In this document: positions 1,780 through 56,388 of the stretch, piece after piece | How positions within the stretch are numbered: the stretch's first letter is position 1 | Layout of the letters: every line of letters begins with the position of its first letter | NCBI GenBank assembly: GCA_012728115.1 | Contig: JAAYFS010000014.1 | Location: forward strand, 2,279 to 66,278 | DNA from: Bacillota bacterium | GTDB lineage: Bacteria; Bacillota; Limnochordia; Darwinibacteriales; JAAYFS01 | DNA length: 64,000 nucleotides | Direction of reading: 5' to 3' | The notes under the pieces: model-generated | Databases searched by the model: none | What the model was told of the DNA's origin: nothing | What the model saw: the letters and a program-made list of their open reading frames with translations, nothing else | Position numbers and translations under genes: made by a program

Positions 1780-2961
1780 GTGCATAATGACACAACTGAA
1801 CATCTAAGCGAACCAATTGTTATCTATCAGAAAAGACCTGGTTGGTTAGAGACTGGACTGAGTTGGCTATTTTACACTGCCAAAAAACAATTAGTCCTAA
1901 CAATTGCGATCATCGCCATGCTAATTACCTGCATCTTTGTACCTGTGGATAGAAGCTATTTAGGTTATTTTAATTGGCCTACTTTAGCAACACTCTATTG
2001 TACTTTAGCGGTAGTGGAAGCTCTATCCCACATCCATGTCTTTGAGATTATCAGTAAAAGTATTGTTTTAAAGCTCCGCAACTTGCGCAATGCGACTTTG
2101 GGATTGGTGTTTATAACCTTTATTGGCTCTATGTTCCTCGCTAATGATATGGCGTTACTCACTTTTTTACCTCTTGGTTACTTTGTATTGGCTATCACAG
2201 ATAATAAAGAAGCCATGGCATTTACTTTTATTATGCAAAATATAGCTGCTAATTTGGGAGGAATGGTAACACCGTTTGGGAATCCCCAAAATCTTTATCT
2301 CTATGCTTATTACAGTATTGATACTGTGGAATTCATGAAAATAATGTTTCCAAGTTTTCTGGTGTCAATCCTTTTAATTATTGGTATCTGCTGTTTTGTA
2401 AAGCCAATACCTCTCGTACTAAAAGTAGATAACCATTACACCTTAGATCTAAAACTTACATCAATATACAGCATCCTTTTTGTTGCTAGCATTCTCATCG
2501 TATTTCGCATTATCCCTTATCTCCTTGGAACAGTCGTGATTACTTTGGTCTTATTTATCCTAGATAGGAAAGCATTAAAGGAAGTAAACTACCCACTGCT
2601 AGCTACCTTCGCGGCAATTTTTGTATTTAGTGGTAATATGTCAAGGATACCTGCGGTAAATGCGTTCTTTTCTAAGGCTTTACCCATGAACACTTTGCTA
2701 ATGGGAATCTTATCGTGTCAGTTTATTAGTAATGTACCAAGCGCTGTTTTGTTATCTCACTTCACAGATAATTATCATGCGCTTCTACCAGCTGTAAATA
2801 TCGGTGGGTGTGGTACTTTGATTGCATCTTTAGCTAGTCTGATTACCTTTAGTGAATACAAGAAACATAATCCAAACAAGGTTAAATCATACCTAATTAA
2901 GTTTACGATCATAAACTTTTTGTTTGTAATTGTACTTTATCTGCTTGAAACTTTGATTTAG
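1780..2961 (+). CDS. SLC13/CitMHS/ArsB-NhaD family ion or carboxylate transporter
   Basis: Polytopic hydrophobic ORF with LANDMALLTF, ANLGGMVTPFGNPQNLYL and ISNVPSAVLL motifs. Confidence 0.85.
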   Translation: MHNDTTEHLSEPIVIYQKRPGWLETGLSWLFYTAKKQLVLTIAIIAMLITCIFVPVDRSYLGYFNWPTLATLYCTLAVVEALSHIHVFEIISKSIVLKLRNLRNATLGLVFITFIGSMFLANDMALLTFLPLGYFVLAITDNKEAMAFTFIMQNIAANLGGMVTPFGNPQNLYLYAYYSIDTVEFMKIMFPSFLVSILLIIGICCFVKPIPLVLKVDNHYTLDLKLTSIYSILFVASILIVFRIIPYLLGTVVITLVLFILDRKALKEVNYPLLATFAAIFVFSGNMSRIPAVNAFFSKALPMNTLLMGILSCQFISNVPSAVLLSHFTDNYHALLPAVNIGGCGTLIASLASLITFSEYKKHNPNKVKSYLIKFTIINFLFVIVLYLLETLI

Positions 2962-3025
2962 ACTGTAAAATAAGGGCTTATTTGTGAGAAAAAAAGATAA
3001 AAACGAGAAAGCACTCCGCTTAAGG

Positions 3026-3083
3026 TGCTCCCATGTGATAGACAGTTAAATTACAAAAACTGTTTATCATTGGGAGCATTTTT
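3026..3083 (+). terminator. Long imperfect hairpin with T-tract, probable terminator of the transporter gene
   Basis: TGCTCCCA-TGTGATAGACAGTT pairs with AACTGTTTATCATTGGGAGCA, then TTTTT. Confidence 0.6.
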
Positions 3084-3246
3084 AATTGTTATAACACATC
3101 GCCTTTCAAATGTTGTCAATTGCGATAGGATTGTGTATCTAGATTCTGGACGGATATGTGAGCAAGGAACTCATAAAGAGCTATTAAGGATCGGAGGGAA
3201 ATATGCTAAGTTATTCTCAATACAAGCTGAAAAATATGTTTCGTAA
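3082..3246 (+). pseudogene. 3' remnant of an ABC exporter ATPase domain
   Basis: LIVITHRLSNVVNCDRIVYLDSGRICEQGTHKELL...GGKYAKLF: H-loop and C-terminus only; Walker A/B and signature absent. Confidence 0.8.
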
Positions 3247-3315
3247 GTAAGCGGTAAATGTGGAGGCGGAACATCATCTGCCTGTTCCAATATGGTTAAT
3301 TTCCTAGCTAACGGA

Positions 3316-3443
3316 GACCTGTTTTTCCAGTTATAGTACACACTCTGGGACACTTCTAATATAGCGTACATTGTCGCCGCAGAATGCCTGAAGGCGTGAG
3401 CTCTGAACTTTTGTTTGTTTTGCTCAACGTTAACACTTCGCAT
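3316..3443 (-). pseudogene. Tyrosine recombinase fragment fused to an IS3-OrfB-like fragment
   Basis: FRAHAFRHSAATMY resembles the H-x-x-R-H box; followed directly by LEVSQSVYYNWKNR, resembling the IS3 OrfB N-terminal VSRSGYYxW motif. Confidence 0.5.
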
Positions 3444-51461: not shown

Positions 51462-51980
51462 CTATTTGTTATTATTAATTCGTCTTTGGGCTGCTTGGTG
51501 CGTAGCTTCATATTTTGCTTCAAGTCTTTTCTTATTCAATCTAAGTGATAAGAGGATCCAACCTATTCCAAGCGGCCATAGCGATAGATAAATAATCCCA
51601 ACGATTTTTGACGCAGTTGTCAGTTCCTCGGGATTAATAAATTGGGCAACAAGAATTACGTACGTCATTACTAAGAAAAACCCAATGGAAAACGCACCTG
51701 CGGCAAAGTTATAGTTATCCGATGGCCAGAGAGCTTTGATGCCCAGATAAGCAAAGAATAAAGGCCAAAATCGAAAAACCATTTGAAATCCATCTATAGG
51801 AAGGATATTATATTGCTTTAATAGGTGTGTACCACCAAAAAAAGCGATCAGCGCACAGATCTTCAGAAAAATACCTTTCCAATCGATTCTTTTAAATCCT
51901 TCACGATCGGTTATTAGTTGCACGATTAGACCAGTGCCGATGATAAATGCTGCGAACATGATAATTCCGACAACTAGCAT
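51462..51980 (-). CDS. Hypothetical membrane protein
   Basis: GAGGAGG RBS + ATG 51980; about 5 hydrophobic helices; no recognised motif. Confidence 0.7.
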   Translation of the reverse strand: MLVVGIIMFAAFIIGTGLIVQLITDREGFKRIDWKGIFLKICALIAFFGGTHLLKQYNILPIDGFQMVFRFWPLFFAYLGIKALWPSDNYNFAAGAFSIGFFLVMTYVILVAQFINPEELTTASKIVGIIYLSLWPLGIGWILLSLRLNKKRLEAKYEATHQAAQRRINNNK

Positions 51981-52158
51981 TTTGTTGCCTCCTCTCGGAG
52001 TTGCGTGGAGTTTTGTTCTACTAGAATATAGCTTACTACAGTTTTTATGAAAGAACAATCACAAATCCCCTAAAAAACATTTCGGAATAATTAATAAAGT
52101 GTAAACATTTCAAAGGGAAATTGCGTTTTTTGTCTAATTTATCAGTGGAGGTGATAGT

Positions 52159-53784
52159 ATGGAAAAAAAGCTTTCCTTAGAAGAAAGGGAATTGTTGAGA
52201 CTGCTACAAAGTATTGACCCCGAAAGAAAAGACGTGGAATTTGACTTTAGTAAAGATCTTGATTTCAAAAGATTTCTCGAAGTTGTTGCAGAACAAGGAA
52301 TTTTTCCATTCATCGGTGTTTTGTTGGAAAACAAAAACGAAGTACCTGATCGAGTAAGAATGACATTTTTTACTCAAAACATGATTGTTCAGGACAGGCA
52401 ACGAAAACTAAGGGATGAGTTACAAATTGTGGCAACTCAACTTAACAAACGGGGAATTACACCCATCGTTTTAAAAGGCTTTTCGTTTTTAGAAAAGTAT
52501 CCCGATCCATTGATGCGCATTTCTGGTGATTTCGACCTGATGGTAAAAAGAGAAGATGTTTATGTGGTTGATGAGGTTCTCTGCAGTTTAGGTTATGGAA
52601 TGGAGGAGTATGGAACCCCTTTTGAATCCGAGCATGGTATTGCTGTTAGTCAAAACCTCCACCATCTCTTGCCATACTGTCATTCAAGTGAAAGGGGAAG
52701 TTACATGATTGAGGTTCATCAACCTCAAACAGAAGAATATAGTTATTTTGGTATTGATGAAGAAGAAATGAACAGAAAAAGCGTTCCTTTAGAGGGCTTT
52801 AGTGATGTTCAAATTGCGCGCTACAATGATCTTGATCTATTGATTTATGCTTGCATCCACTTTTTTAGACATGCACAAACTTGGTTCTGGGCGATTAGGT
52901 TTGATATTAATTTAAGGCTTTTTTTAGATGTTTTTATGATTGCTCACCATATTTCTAAAATGAAAGACGGTTGGCGCAGATTTGTGGAACGAGCTGAACA
53001 GGTAAATGCGGTTAGGATTTGCCTGTTTACGTTAATTCGGGTGCGTTTAATATGGCCTAATGTGTGTCCAGATTGGGTGATTGAGGAATTATCGAGCAAG
53101 ACGTTTCCTTTTGAACCTCCATTTGCGCTCGACTGGAACCTGAAACATTTTCAAGTTACCTATTTTGAACGTTTGTTCAGGGCTCCCGAATCATTTCAGA
53201 GGATGGAGGAAACAATTAGCTCGTTACGAGAACAGGGTTTAGTTTGTGGCGTTGTTGAAAAAAACGTACCGATTAAGATCGATGAAGACGATGTTCCAGA
53301 ATGGCAATTCTTTGGAAGTCATCAACTAGAGATTAGAAGGCCACCAGAATCAAAACTAGAAGCTACCTTTGATTGGGATGAAGATTATTTTTACGGTAGC
53401 TTTTTGTTAGAAAAACCAGAACTTATTTGTGGAACAGACGGCTTAATCTGGGACAAAATTCGAGTTCTCTTGTATGAACCTCCTTCGCATCGTATCTCCA
53501 TCTATCCAAAAGCTAGAAACAAAGTTGGAGTAGAAATCATTAAAATGGATGGATGGATCATCAGTCATTATGAAATAGGTGATTGGAGTCAGATAGAAGA
53601 TAATAAGTGGCAGCTTAAGGTGCGAATTCCATGGGAGGTGTTAGATTATACTCCTCAGTCAGGTGATAAACGAGGGTTTAATATGGAGATTTGGGAGTAT
53701 AAAGAACCGAAGGCTCCGACTTTAAATGTCTTAAGTTGGAGTGGTGGTCGTAGCGGCTGTTATTATGGAACAATCAAATTTTAA
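52159..53784 (+). CDS. Nucleotidyltransferase (NTP_transf_5-like) with C-terminal beta-sandwich (CBM9/DOMON-like) domain
   Basis: GGAGGTG RBS; VLKG...YPDPLMRISGDFDLMV, IEVH, DLLIYACIH; C-terminal FDWDEDYFY...WQLKVRIPW...RGFNMEI. Confidence 0.75.
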   Translation: MEKKLSLEERELLRLLQSIDPERKDVEFDFSKDLDFKRFLEVVAEQGIFPFIGVLLENKNEVPDRVRMTFFTQNMIVQDRQRKLRDELQIVATQLNKRGITPIVLKGFSFLEKYPDPLMRISGDFDLMVKREDVYVVDEVLCSLGYGMEEYGTPFESEHGIAVSQNLHHLLPYCHSSERGSYMIEVHQPQTEEYSYFGIDEEEMNRKSVPLEGFSDVQIARYNDLDLLIYACIHFFRHAQTWFWAIRFDINLRLFLDVFMIAHHISKMKDGWRRFVERAEQVNAVRICLFTLIRVRLIWPNVCPDWVIEELSSKTFPFEPPFALDWNLKHFQVTYFERLFRAPESFQRMEETISSLREQGLVCGVVEKNVPIKIDEDDVPEWQFFGSHQLEIRRPPESKLEATFDWDEDYFYGSFLLEKPELICGTDGLIWDKIRVLLYEPPSHRISIYPKARNKVGVEIIKMDGWIISHYEIGDWSQIEDNKWQLKVRIPWEVLDYTPQSGDKRGFNMEIWEYKEPKAPTLNVLSWSGGRSGCYYGTIKF

Positions 53785-53799
53785 TAGAAAAACCAAAAA

Positions 53800-53837
53800 C
53801 CTAAATGACTCAAAGCGGGCGCTTTGAGTCATTTAGG
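53800..53837 (-). terminator. Perfect 18-bp inverted repeat, terminator for the PqqD gene
   Basis: CCTAAATGACTCAAAGCG-GG-CGCTTTGAGTCATTTAGG with an A-tract on its left (U-tract on the minus strand). Confidence 0.75.
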
Positions 53838-53875: not shown

Positions 53876-54154
53876 TTATGAAACCTCTGAATCGCAGATA
53901 ATTAACTTGCGCTCAATAAAATCTTGAATAATCTCTTGGATATCCTTGATTAATTCCTCAAGCTCTACATCATCGTTATACATTTCCCACATTTTGGCGA
54001 TCACATCATCGAGAGTTTCGCAGGTGTCCAAAAGGTTCCAAATATCCGATCCAGTAGGATTTAGCACATGAAGAAATCCGTCTTCGGGGTTAAGTAAAAC
54101 AGTATCTTCGTTAAAACTGCGACAAATAACCTTTGGTGCTTTTTCTAGTTTCAT
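53876..54154 (-). CDS. PqqD-family RiPP recognition element (RRE)
   Basis: 92 aa; TVLLN...LHVLNPTGSDIWNLLD...LDDVIAKM..MY, the typical PqqD/lasso B1 pattern; GGAGGAG RBS. Confidence 0.88.
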   Translation of the reverse strand: MKLEKAPKVICRSFNEDTVLLNPEDGFLHVLNPTGSDIWNLLDTCETLDDVIAKMWEMYNDDVELEELIKDIQEIIQDFIERKLIICDSEVS

Positions 54155-54334
54155 TACGAAAAACTCCTCCCTCTTTTTGATTCAGTACGTAACCATAAGT
54201 AACTATAAGTCCGATAAATGTAACAGTTTGAAAAATTTATAAATCAATAAAATCTAGCAGGAAAAATTTGCAAATTAATAGAATTAATTCAAAAAGCATG
54301 GGCTAAATCCTTGCTGGTGTAGGAGGTTTTGTGA

Positions 54335-55738
54335 ATGAAAAAGCATGATAAACCTGGAAACAACGATGAAATCAAGGATCTAGAGCAACCTAAGACAGAA
54401 ATTGATAAATTTGTTGCAGAATTGATAGAAGAATACTATCCATTGGTTTATCGCTACTGCTTGTCCAAAACATCCCACCCTCATGAAGCTGATGATATAA
54501 CTCAAGAAGTTTTTACTGTATGTTATCAGAACGCCGAGCGTTTGCGCGATCGTTCTAAAGCGAAGAATTGGATTATGGCTATTACCAACAACTTGATTAA
54601 TTTATATTTCCGTAGGTTTTACAATAGATTGACTTTTGAACCGATAAGCGAAGAGCTTTTAAGTGATCTTCGAATGGCGGCAGCTCCTGCTGATGATTTT
54701 ATAGAAGTCGATTTTGAATTAAGTGATGCCTATGCGGTTTTTGAGCGGACTGCCGAAGATATTCGCCAGGTTGTGGCAATGCAGTGCTTTGAGGGTATGA
54801 GTTATGAAGAAATGGCAAGTAAACTCGATATCCCTAAAAGCACTGTGAGAGGAAGGATAGCCACAACCAAAAAGCAGTTTATTGCAAATGCACTTGAACC
54901 AGATGTGCCAAGTACATTGCGGAATAGGGCTGCAAAAGCGGTTGCCAAAGTGATAGATGATTTAGAATCAGTCCGTCAAAACTTAATAGATAATTTTGCT
55001 GAGAACGCTGGGATAGTATTGATGCTTGACGCATTTCGGCATCAAGATGGTTCAAGGACCTTATTTACCCATGGTTCTTTAGATAATATTATTTTTATCT
55101 GTGAAGTAAATGGTAGGACTAGAGGAGTGATGAAGACTAAGAATACTAAAGCAACCAAAGTGCTTGCAAACCTAATTCCTAAGGGAAAATCAGTGTTATT
55201 AAGTGTTGCTTCACCCAAGGACGAAATTGAAATTCTTAGGCGTTACGGTAGGGTTGAACTTCGCTATCCCAAACCATTTCGACACTACTTCCTTTACCCA
55301 GATTGGTTCGTGAAGCCAGATCAAACCGTAGAAGTTGAAGAACTATGCTATACGGAAATTCAAGAATTTTGCGAGGAGCATTCCATTTACGGTCGTTGGT
55401 ATTCTTCTTTGCAAAATCAATACCCTAACGCAGATTTTAACGTCAAGATTTTTGTTCAACGGAATAGTCAGAAGGAACCTATCGCTAGTGCACTCTTGTT
55501 TAAGTATGATTTCGCGGAGATATGGGAAATTCTTTTGCTGGATAGCCTTGTTCATGGAGAAATGACTGCTGAACATTTTAAGTTGTTCGTAGCTTCGGTC
55601 ATTTCCAAACTAGTTGAGCAAGGATACATTTTCAGCAATATTGCTCCACAACCTAATTCTGCAGAAGAAAGAGTTCTAAAGGTCTTAGGGTTTCGCCCAA
55701 GGGGTGAAACAAGGCGTGTTGTAGTTGAACTCAACTAG
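54335..55738 (+). CDS. ECF sigma factor with about 270-aa C-terminal extension (GNAT-like end)
   Basis: Region 2 (YPLVYRYC...ADDITQEVF...KNWIMAITNN) and region 4 (EGMSYEEMASKLDIPKSTVRGRI); C-terminal ends PNSAEERVLKVLGF. Confidence 0.85.
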   Translation: MKKHDKPGNNDEIKDLEQPKTEIDKFVAELIEEYYPLVYRYCLSKTSHPHEADDITQEVFTVCYQNAERLRDRSKAKNWIMAITNNLINLYFRRFYNRLTFEPISEELLSDLRMAAAPADDFIEVDFELSDAYAVFERTAEDIRQVVAMQCFEGMSYEEMASKLDIPKSTVRGRIATTKKQFIANALEPDVPSTLRNRAAKAVAKVIDDLESVRQNLIDNFAENAGIVLMLDAFRHQDGSRTLFTHGSLDNIIFICEVNGRTRGVMKTKNTKATKVLANLIPKGKSVLLSVASPKDEIEILRRYGRVELRYPKPFRHYFLYPDWFVKPDQTVEVEELCYTEIQEFCEEHSIYGRWYSSLQNQYPNADFNVKIFVQRNSQKEPIASALLFKYDFAEIWEILLLDSLVHGEMTAEHFKLFVASVISKLVEQGYIFSNIAPQPNSAEERVLKVLGFRPRGETRRVVVELN

Positions 55739-55746
55739 AATTTGGT

Positions 55747-55887
55747 CTAGCTACAGCAGTAGGCATTATGGAAAATAAAGTCCATATTGTGTCTACATCC
55801 AGCTAAAGGAATTATCTCGTATCCTACCTTGAAAATCTTTTGTGAAACAACAGTGGGTTTGCAGTATTTCTTAGTTTGCTTTTTCAT
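55747..55887 (-). CDS. Putative RiPP precursor peptide, 46 aa (not in supplied ORF track)
   Basis: AAAGGAGGG RBS 7 nt before ATG; MKKQTKKYCKPTVVSQKIFKVGYEIIPLAGCRHNMDFIFHNAYCCS; YxxP leader motif; flanked by RRE, S26 peptidase and NTase genes. Confidence 0.8.
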   Translation of the reverse strand: MKKQTKKYCKPTVVSQKIFKVGYEIIPLAGCRHNMDFIFHNAYCCS

Positions 55888-56040
55888 GCTTATACCCTCC
55901 TTTTTATAAGTAATTTTAACGATTCATTAATATAGTTGCTTTAGGATGGCGAAAAATCAACGGACAGGCTCGGATTTTTGTTAAAGTTTTGTAAAATACA
56001 AAGTGGAAACTATCCAAATCGTTATCGGGAGTGATAGATA

Positions 56041-56388
56041 GTGCTGGATGAGAAACTTTCTCCTCTTACAGTGGCATTGCAAATGGTTAGGGAGCAATTA
56101 GCGACTGGGGCAATTGTTCCAATGCAGGGATTTGGAATTAGTATGGAACCAACTATTAGTTCTGGAGATGTGGTTGAAATAGTTGCGCCAAACGATCTGA
56201 AAATAGGAGATATTGTTGTAGTAGATTATGGGCGTGGTTTATTGGTCGTACATAGAATTATTGCATTTCATCAGTATGGTGAGCGAACCATTGTTGAAAC
56301 CAAAGGCGATAATAAACCCGAATCTGAGCAAGCCCCTATAGAATATGTACTTGGGCGAGTTGTCTCGATCAACGGGAAAAAAATATAG
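56041..56388 (+). CDS. S24/S26-family peptidase without membrane anchor
   Basis: GISMEPTI (Ser), GDIVVV, VVHRII (His), TKGDN. Confidence 0.85.
   Translation: MLDEKLSPLTVALQMVREQLATGAIVPMQGFGISMEPTISSGDVVEIVAPNDLKIGDIVVVDYGRGLLVVHRIIAFHQYGERTIVETKGDNKPESEQAPIEYVLGRVVSINGKKI

Follow-up and report, generated by a model that had tools for sequence, protein, structure and literature searches.

Linear polyphosphorylated peptides (LPP) of Bacillota were described by Popov et al. (2026, Nat Commun; PMC13381572) for the lppA-K-B-S-D-N genes of Paenibacillus alginolyticus. The LPP core genes encode LppS, a signal peptidase I (SpI)-like, SipW-related protein with catalytic residues S29, H68, and D93, the recognition protein LppB, the HprK-like kinase LppK, the nucleoside triphosphate (NTP) transferase LppN, and the MsbA-like exporter LppD (PMC13381572). 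The precursors share the motif YxxPxVLxHQxIxFETxxS and are cleaved by LppS after T-1, 16 residues on from the Tyr of YxxP, and only on presentation by LppB; the leader residues F-3, E-2, and T-1 are important for cleavage, and LppK polyphosphorylates Ser3 of the core (PMC13381572). In the crystal structure, Y-16, P-13, and V-11 are seated in pockets of LppB, and crystal structures show that LppB and lasso B1 proteins alike bind the motif [Y/W]xxPx[L/V/I] (PMC13381572). LPP is the closest characterized system to the locus analyzed here, which lies in a stretch of 64,000 nucleotides (the window) from a Bacillota bacterium (GenBank assembly GCA_012728115.1, contig JAAYFS010000014.1, positions 2,279 to 66,278 of the forward strand) and includes a gene for a peptide of 46 aa plus stop (55747..55887, minus strand). 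Judged from comparison with homologues, this open reading frame (ORF) is very probably the single precursor of a peptide that is made by ribosomes and modified after translation (RiPP) in an uncharacterized relative of LPP that bears a radical S-adenosylmethionine (SAM) enzyme.

The locus resembles LPP in its Bacillota host, in a leader peptidase that is a soluble SpI of the archaeal type and has a Ser/His/Asp triad, in a discrete PqqD recognition protein encoded next to the peptidase and the precursor, and in a PF14907-type NTP transferase. A candidate HprK-like kinase and an MsbA-like exporter are also encoded, both of them away from the window locus in the source genome. The leader contains YxxPxV, and its hydrophobic positions -11, -5, and -3 match those of LPP gaplessly. 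The differences are that a radical SAM/SPASM enzyme and a fusion of an extracytoplasmic function (ECF) sigma factor with a GNAT-like domain are conserved here, neither of which is mentioned in the LPP paper (PMC13381572); that the core is short and bears Cys, as against the long variable tail of LPP; that the remainder of the LPP motif, LxHQxIxFETxxS, is absent from the peptides; and that the transferase has an additional CBM9-like domain and the locus is spread over two contigs.

The precursor gene was delimited using the ORF list, its homologues, and an alignment (A8) of eight peptides, namely the window precursor and homologues from other Bacillota genomes and metagenomes. Its translation is MKKQTKKYCKPTVVSQKIFKVGYEIIPLAGCRHNMDFIFHNAYCCS. 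The ATG is the earliest start codon 3' of the in-frame stop upstream, and on the minus strand it is preceded by the Shine-Dalgarno sequence AAAGGAGGG (55895-55903, read from the sequence), which ends 7 nt before the ATG, the spacer being TATAAGC (55888-55894). An earlier interpretation made from the DNA letters (the sequence-only reading) had proposed a 46-aa ORF with a strong ribosome-binding site at 7-nt spacing, and its coordinates and sequence were exactly as claimed. The ORF is already annotated as a gene in a public protein collection (P0001). It is the sole precursor-like ORF in the source genome, the assembly of which comprises 1.95 Mb in 66 contigs and is 95.8% complete. Short ORFs are frequent in this part of the window (115 ORFs of at least 30 aa in 16 kb), and conservation was therefore the deciding question.

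Word-indexed protein searches were nearly empty, returning only the peptide itself for the peptide, three matches for the neighboring nucleotidyltransferase, and two for the peptidase, because the lineage has diverged too far, and profile searches of whole genomes and an exhaustive search of representative proteins had to be used. Homologues near PqqD genes in other genomes, for which the sequence-only reading had suggested looking, were found by profile searches; in a set of 1.84 billion representative proteins, syntenic homologues had E-values from 1e-16 to 5e-4. The exhaustive representative search yielded two further members (P0007 and P0009), on whose contigs a radical SAM gene and the peptide are accompanied by PqqD, sigma-fusion, or peptidase genes. 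A related 75-aa entry (P0008) equals the 62-aa P0007 through ...VGYDISPF and is unrelated thereafter; it appears to be a frameshifted or misassembled precursor copy. Two other matches from the same search (P0010 and P0011) were discarded as repeat-derived noise (CAVGYDLSPFGL repeats). Over 401 genomes, the peptide profile recovered a member from another Bacillota family (G103, E = 2.6e-8). A class-wide search with the nucleotidyltransferase led to one genus of the same order, whose homologues are full-length and 25-28% identical, and the loci of that genus (four genomes) have the same gene set together with a 61-aa ORF ending ...YVKPTVQSERLFTVGYAIKPFRICANEWRTHGGCICFS. In all, eight distinct homologues were recovered from other Bacillota genomes and metagenomes, and every one with readable surroundings is located within or beside the same cassette. 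Against the PDB, the peptide profile gave nothing but chance myosin matches.

Seven residues are invariant in all eight A8 peptides (Y8, P11, S15, F19, P27, C31, and C45), and seven of the eight terminate in C-[F/C]-S; the window precursor is the shortest of its subfamily. When four close relatives were compared, codons differed about equally often synonymously (13-26) and non-synonymously (19-24), which indicates, on this codon comparison, purifying selection on the reading frame. The same four relatives retain an AGGAG or GGGAGG Shine-Dalgarno sequence 7-9 nt before the ATG. Because homologues, synteny, purifying selection, and a retained Shine-Dalgarno sequence coincide, the ORF is, as far as comparative sequence evidence reaches, a genuine, selected coding sequence, far beyond chance.

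The subfamily cassette consists of seven parts: the precursor, the PqqD protein, the SpI-like peptidase, a PF14907 transferase with a beta domain, a P-loop/HprK-like protein, the radical SAM/SPASM enzyme, and the ECF sigma fusion. In the source genome it is divided between the window contig and a second contig, C21. Five genes, the precursor included, are tightly packed at the window locus. The peptidase (56041..56388, plus strand; 115 aa) is a signal-peptidase-I-like protein related to SEC11, with a score of 56.4 bits on TIGR02228 (archaeal-type signal peptidase I; cut-off 51.85); among solved structures it is closest to the catalytic subunits SEC11A and SEC11C (E about 1e-8). Its S34, H71, and D90 are invariant among its homologues, so far as sequence tells an intact set of catalytic residues, and its N-terminus, as read from the sequence, is charged, with no evident membrane anchor. 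The PqqD-family RiPP recognition element (53876..54154, minus strand; 92 aa) scores 54 bits on PF05402, and its ScmD-like and lasso-PqqD-like matches are under the respective cut-offs. In the PDB its meaningful matches are LppB (9x8z_B, E = 0.006), a weak one, and TbiB1 (E = 0.009); the top PDB matches, beta-propeller repeat designs, were judged spurious.

The PF14907 (NTP_transf_5) nucleotidyltransferase (52159..53784, plus strand; 541 aa) scores 125 bits on its family model, and full-length homologues are present in all subfamily loci. Its C-terminal domain of about 140 residues (~53353-53784, plus strand) is an all-beta sandwich in a structure model, for which the best fold matches are CBM9 modules (E about 2e-3; predicted local distance difference test (pLDDT) of the model, 56), a hint of a CBM9-like domain. 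A strong 17-bp hairpin terminator (53800..53837, unstranded) lies between the convergent nucleotidyltransferase and PqqD genes. The fifth gene encodes the sigma fusion (54335..55738, plus strand; 467 aa), in which an ECF sigma factor (about residues 1-190; Sigma70_r2 and Sigma70_r4_2) is followed by a GNAT-like C-terminal domain of about 275 aa. A membrane protein of 198 aa, weakly similar to LiaF-TM, is encoded on the opposite strand immediately upstream of the nucleotidyltransferase gene (51462-52058); relatives do not have it beside the cassette.

In relatives, the gene for the P-loop protein (about 300 aa) is followed by the radical SAM/SPASM gene and then by the peptide gene, the last two often overlapping. 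The corresponding genes of the source genome are on C21: a radical SAM/SPASM enzyme (C21:664-1707) that is 44% identical to the enzyme of the relatives, and a P-loop HprK/ScmC-like protein (C21:1682-2584) with weak family matches. An ABC_membrane (MsbA-like) exporter gene follows the radical SAM gene and runs off the start of C21; a scan of contig ends for its continuation gave nothing usable. The best family matches of the radical SAM enzyme (AhbD, MftC, StsB, WgkB, and ScmE/F) are all far under the cut-offs. PDB searches with the P-loop protein detected the Walker A motif and, weakly, PEPCK but nothing further, and a source annotation assigns PF27840 (ScmC) to its homologue at locus L132. 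The cassette half on C21 is downstream of a DUF1638 gene (2693-3400); what looks like a MacB-type efflux set, with two permeases of the FtsX type, an ABC ATPase, and an HlyD-like protein, lies further upstream (C21:1-8100). Downstream of the cassette at L132 (7098-9271; GCA_040436515.1), two genes were observed, one for a protein of 391 aa whose N-terminus is PqqD-like and one for a second P-loop protein (298 aa), which may form a second, related module. The shared cassette of the homologues supports, at the level of sequence, the proposal that a RiPP-type precursor is served by the adjacent PqqD protein and the 56041-56388 peptidase.

More distant cassettes were also recovered. An alignment scan with the radical SAM enzyme (one genome per species) gave loci of about 30% identity in Nitrospirota, Acidobacteriota, Omnitrophota, Methanosarcina, and others. 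Nitrospira-type loci, as delineated by profiles of the cassette proteins, have genes for PqqD, P-loop, and radical SAM proteins, a PF14907 protein of about 335 aa that is without the beta domain, an S24/S26-like protein, and a plain ECF sigma factor of about 200 aa. Motif mining of these loci gave precursors of the form KKxYxxPxhxRVxLNxEQAILSxC...C...C[K/R]...S, always with three Cys and a C-terminal Ser. The distant cassettes of Nitrospirota, Acidobacteriota, and Omnitrophota have their enzyme set in common with the Bacillota subfamily, and the leaders of their precursors are of the KK-YxxP type. The Bacillota subfamily and the Nitrospira-type precursors have the same architecture. Tandem precursor genes, two or three, are frequent in Nitrospira-type cassettes (L063 at 6636 and 6844; L114 at 6405, 6609, and 6815; also L064, L119, L124, and L130), and their products have near-identical leaders, KKPYSQPQLFRVxLNxEQAILSACS, and differing cores.

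The motif YxxPx[V/M/L/I] of the window peptide, Y8-C-K-P11-T-V13 (55849..55866, minus strand), has Y8 and P11 invariant in all eight peptides and is the presumed binding site of the PqqD protein, by analogy with LppB. With the LPP register applied to the window peptide, Y8 falls at -16, P11 at -13, V13 at -11, F19 at -5, V21 at -3, G22 at -2, and Y23 at -1, and the V-G-Y block is kept in A8, with V in seven of the eight peptides and Y, F, or L at -1. This gapless register predicts a leader M1-Y23 (55819..55887, minus strand) and a core E24-S46 (55750..55818, minus strand), the latter with the invariant P27, C31, and C45 and the C-terminal Ser seen in A8. By this analogy, cleavage after V21-G22-Y23, which would release the 23-residue core EIIPLAGCRHNMDFIFHNAYCCS, is favored with about even confidence over a cut after P27-L28-A29, because the PqqD protein and the peptidase, as homologues of LppB and LppS, probably serve as a molecular ruler. 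The cut after PLA had been suggested in the sequence-only reading; the residue at its -1 position across A8 is A, R, R, R, R, A, N, and A, and the LPP register points instead to VGY23.

With the PLA cut, the sequence-only reading had described a 17-residue core with lasso-like geometry. Its arithmetic is correct on the window sequence (G1, D7, bulky F10 and Y14, three Cys, and a C-terminal Ser), and a lasso peptide would be obtained if cleavage after P27-L28-A29 were followed by closure of a 7-residue Gly30-Asp36 macrolactam around a threaded tail, possibly with the C-terminal Ser phosphorylated. Lasso B1 proteins use the YxxPxV motif that the leader carries, the match of the PqqD protein to lasso_PqqD_Bac reaches 31.6 bits, and lasso clusters often neighbor LPP clusters. 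However, that score is far under the cut-off of 80, and although a PqqD-type B1 protein (the 54-bit PF05402 match) and a YxxPxL-type leader with invariant Y8 and P11 are present, as in lasso systems, a B1-type protein with a YxxP leader is common to LPP as well and so does not discriminate. The ring residues themselves (G/A/S/C at position 1 with D/E at 7-9) occur together in the window sequence only, and only with the PLA cut: in the A8 homologues, the column of G30, the proposed Gly1, holds I, M, M, L, Y, L, and I, and D36, the proposed Asp7, sits within an indel. The asparagine-synthetase-like lasso cyclase, for which a search of the whole genome had been suggested, was absent from the 95.8%-complete source genome, where the only PF00733 match was a 25-bit fragment in a 261-aa frame spanning columns 22-83; this PP-loop fragment was ruled out as a lasso cyclase as it covers 62 of the 354 columns only. 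Five other genomes with the peptide family likewise had no lasso cyclase, or fragments of 19-22 bits, and a Transglut_core3 (PF13471) B2 protease had no match at E <= 1 in the source genome. With no cyclase, no B2 protease, and no conservation of Gly1 and Asp7, the lasso interpretation was abandoned as extremely improbable. A lasso-like core in one sequence can be accidental, as was revealed here by the comparison of homologues and the whole-genome cyclase search.

For the preferred reading, a radical-SAM-bearing relative of LPP, we infer the chemical steps, the cleavage and phosphorylation sites, export, and regulation as follows. The PqqD protein would bind the leader at Y8-x-x-P11-x-V13 as an added beta-strand, and the radical SAM/SPASM enzyme (C21:664-1707) would cross-link the core through the invariant C31 and C45; the two invariant Cys and the presence of such an enzyme suggest, on sequence grounds, a cross-link that is possibly a thioether. 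The HprK/ScmC-like P-loop kinase (C21:1682-2584) would phosphorylate a Ser, most likely the C-terminal Ser46, and the PF14907 transferase with its CBM9-like domain would decorate the phosphate. In paeninodin-type clusters, HprK-like kinases phosphorylate the C-terminal Ser, and PsmN places hexoses on the phosphate (PMC9266682). The significance attached to the C-terminal Ser in the sequence-only reading was borne out, since it is present in seven of the eight subfamily members and in every recovered Nitrospira-type precursor; the invariant S15 is an alternative candidate phosphosite. The soluble SpI-like peptidase would then act on the precursor presented by the PqqD protein and cut off its leader, most likely after V21-G22-Y23, the ABC exporter encoded beside the radical SAM gene would carry the product out, and the ECF sigma factor of the cassette, with its GNAT-like domain, would govern expression.

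Several observations weigh against this pathway. The radical SAM and kinase genes are unlinked to the precursor gene in the source genome, and their role on the peptide rests on synteny in the relatives. The P-loop protein reaches only 16-32 bits with ScmC and HprK-related (HprK_rel_B) models. Position -1 of the predicted cut holds Y, F, or L, none of them classical for a signal peptidase. The phosphosite of LPP, core Ser3, is absent, the position 19 from the Tyr being I, K, R, S, G, or G. The G103 lineage ends in CRG, without a C-terminal Ser, so Ser46 is not obligatory. Finally, profile-profile comparison of the peptide with the Nitrospira-type precursors (hhalign, 2% probability) detected no homology beyond KKxYxKP.

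The division of the cassette also bears on a simpler alternative, a plain LPP member in which the peptide is linear and only cleaved and phospho-decorated, and the C21 radical SAM enzyme acts on some other substrate or plays no part in the source genome. At the window locus there are LPP-type genes only (SpI-like peptidase, recognition protein, PF14907 transferase, and precursor), and the radical SAM and P-loop genes are on a different contig. Yet in every other readable lineage the radical SAM gene stands directly before the peptide gene, overlapping or abutting it; the two Cys are invariant; the genome offers the C21 enzyme just one precursor-like ORF; and the gene of the kinase that LPP requires shares an operon with that of the radical SAM enzyme. 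The LxHQxIxFETxxS consensus expected after YxxPxV is missing along with core Ser3. A plain LPP member is accordingly considered very unlikely.

The sigma fusion was found in every subfamily locus (all five lineages), in place of the plain ECF sigma factor of the Nitrospira-type cassettes. In a Foldseek search with a model of the fusion (pLDDT 53), the N-terminal half matched ECF sigma factors and the C-terminal half matched the tandem-GNAT proteins 3ec4, PamZ (7b3a), FemX, and VipF; in Pfam, the C-terminal domain had a faint FR47 (GNAT) match (E = 0.13). Together these give a model-based hint of a GNAT-like fold. No anti-sigma gene is adjacent to the fusion gene. The peptide and sigma-fusion genes converge with an 8-bp gap (55739-55746), and no canonical terminator was found after the peptide gene; the sole structure at the convergent junction (55725-55760) is a 7-bp hairpin over the peptide stop codon, without a T-run. 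The converging transcripts may therefore overlap in antisense. The 153-bp region that separates the peptide and peptidase genes yielded no promoter of the sigma-70 type. By eye, a candidate motif, AGGAAW-N14-YRGAA, was seen upstream of sigma-fusion genes (window 54259-54283; L012 5229-5307; L014 3558-3629; L132 5943-6120) and of the C21 operon (C21:2585-2720). It was rejected as a shared ECF-type promoter, there being four matches in the window against about one expected, with three of the four at unrelated places.

These features would suit a regulatory peptide, that is, a processed peptide that serves the ECF sigma-GNAT fusion as ligand, substrate, or anti-sigma-like partner in a self-contained signaling circuit and is not a secreted natural product. 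A dedicated ECF sigma factor is conserved in the cassette, GNAT-like-fused here and plain in Nitrospira-type loci, without a neighboring anti-sigma gene; its gene is separated from that of the peptide by only the 8-bp convergent gap; and no exporter is visible in the examined flanks of four of the five subfamily lineages. On the other side, the MsbA-like exporter gene follows the radical SAM gene in the source genome, the GNAT assignment comes from a model of low pLDDT (53), and the candidate promoter motif is unspecific, its other three window matches being unrelated. This regulatory role is regarded as quite unlikely. A broader proposal is that the locus represents an undescribed RiPP class, in which LPP-type leader handling and phospho/nucleotidyl tailoring are joined to a radical SAM Cys-Cys cross-link, and a dedicated ECF sigma factor controls the system and senses or modifies the mature peptide through its tandem-GNAT-like domain, as a self-regulating circuit rather than a simple antibiotic; in this full form it is speculative and rather doubtful.

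A literature search on PF14907, SynChlorMet, HprK with radical SAM and RiPP, and ECF sigma with RiPP returned no account of the radical SAM and sigma-fusion variant. The locus is a radical-SAM- and sigma-bearing variant of the LPP kind, undescribed in the searchable literature. LPP were described only in 2026, and in the present locus their leader handling (YxxP, PqqD, and a cytoplasmic signal-peptidase homologue) is combined with a radical SAM enzyme and with a dedicated sigma factor; related cassettes range from Bacillota to Nitrospirota, Acidobacteriota, and Omnitrophota. The small, fully identified enzyme set and the shortest precursor of the subfamily make a practical construct for studying the chemistry in a laboratory host.

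Three other known systems were compared with the locus. The phosphorylated lassos of the paeninodin/pseudomycoidin type (PadeK, PsmK, PsmN) resemble it in PqqD B1-type recognition of a [Y/W]xxP leader, in the pairing of an HprK-like kinase, putative here, with a nucleotidyltransferase, and in a conserved C-terminal Ser in the precursor; the cassette described here differs in being without a macrolactam cyclase, a B2 cysteine protease, and conserved ring residues, and its leader peptidase is a serine signal-peptidase homologue. The SynChlorMet (SCM) cassette of NCBIfam/TIGRFAMs (ScmC, TIGR04249; ScmD, TIGR04248; ScmE/ScmF, TIGR04250/04251), which is defined by computation only, provides the top NCBIfam matches, ScmD for the PqqD protein and ScmC for the P-loop protein, and the radical SAM enzyme matches ScmE and ScmF. 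With only the ScmC, D, E, and F models compared, all scores were far under the equivalog cut-offs (ScmD, 36.9 of 100; ScmC, 18-32 of 125; ScmE/F, 110-116 of 400), and one radical SAM enzyme is present here as against two. Sactipeptide and ranthipeptide systems (AlbA, StsB, PapB, CteB) share with the relatives of the window locus a radical SAM/SPASM gene directly upstream of a short Cys-containing precursor, the involvement of a recognition element, and a K-rich leader with a Y-x-K-P-type motif. In the present cassette, the recognition element is a separate protein instead of being fused to the enzyme, the radical SAM enzyme scores 66-120 bits against cut-offs of 340-850, and a kinase, a nucleotidyltransferase, and an SpI peptidase are present in addition.

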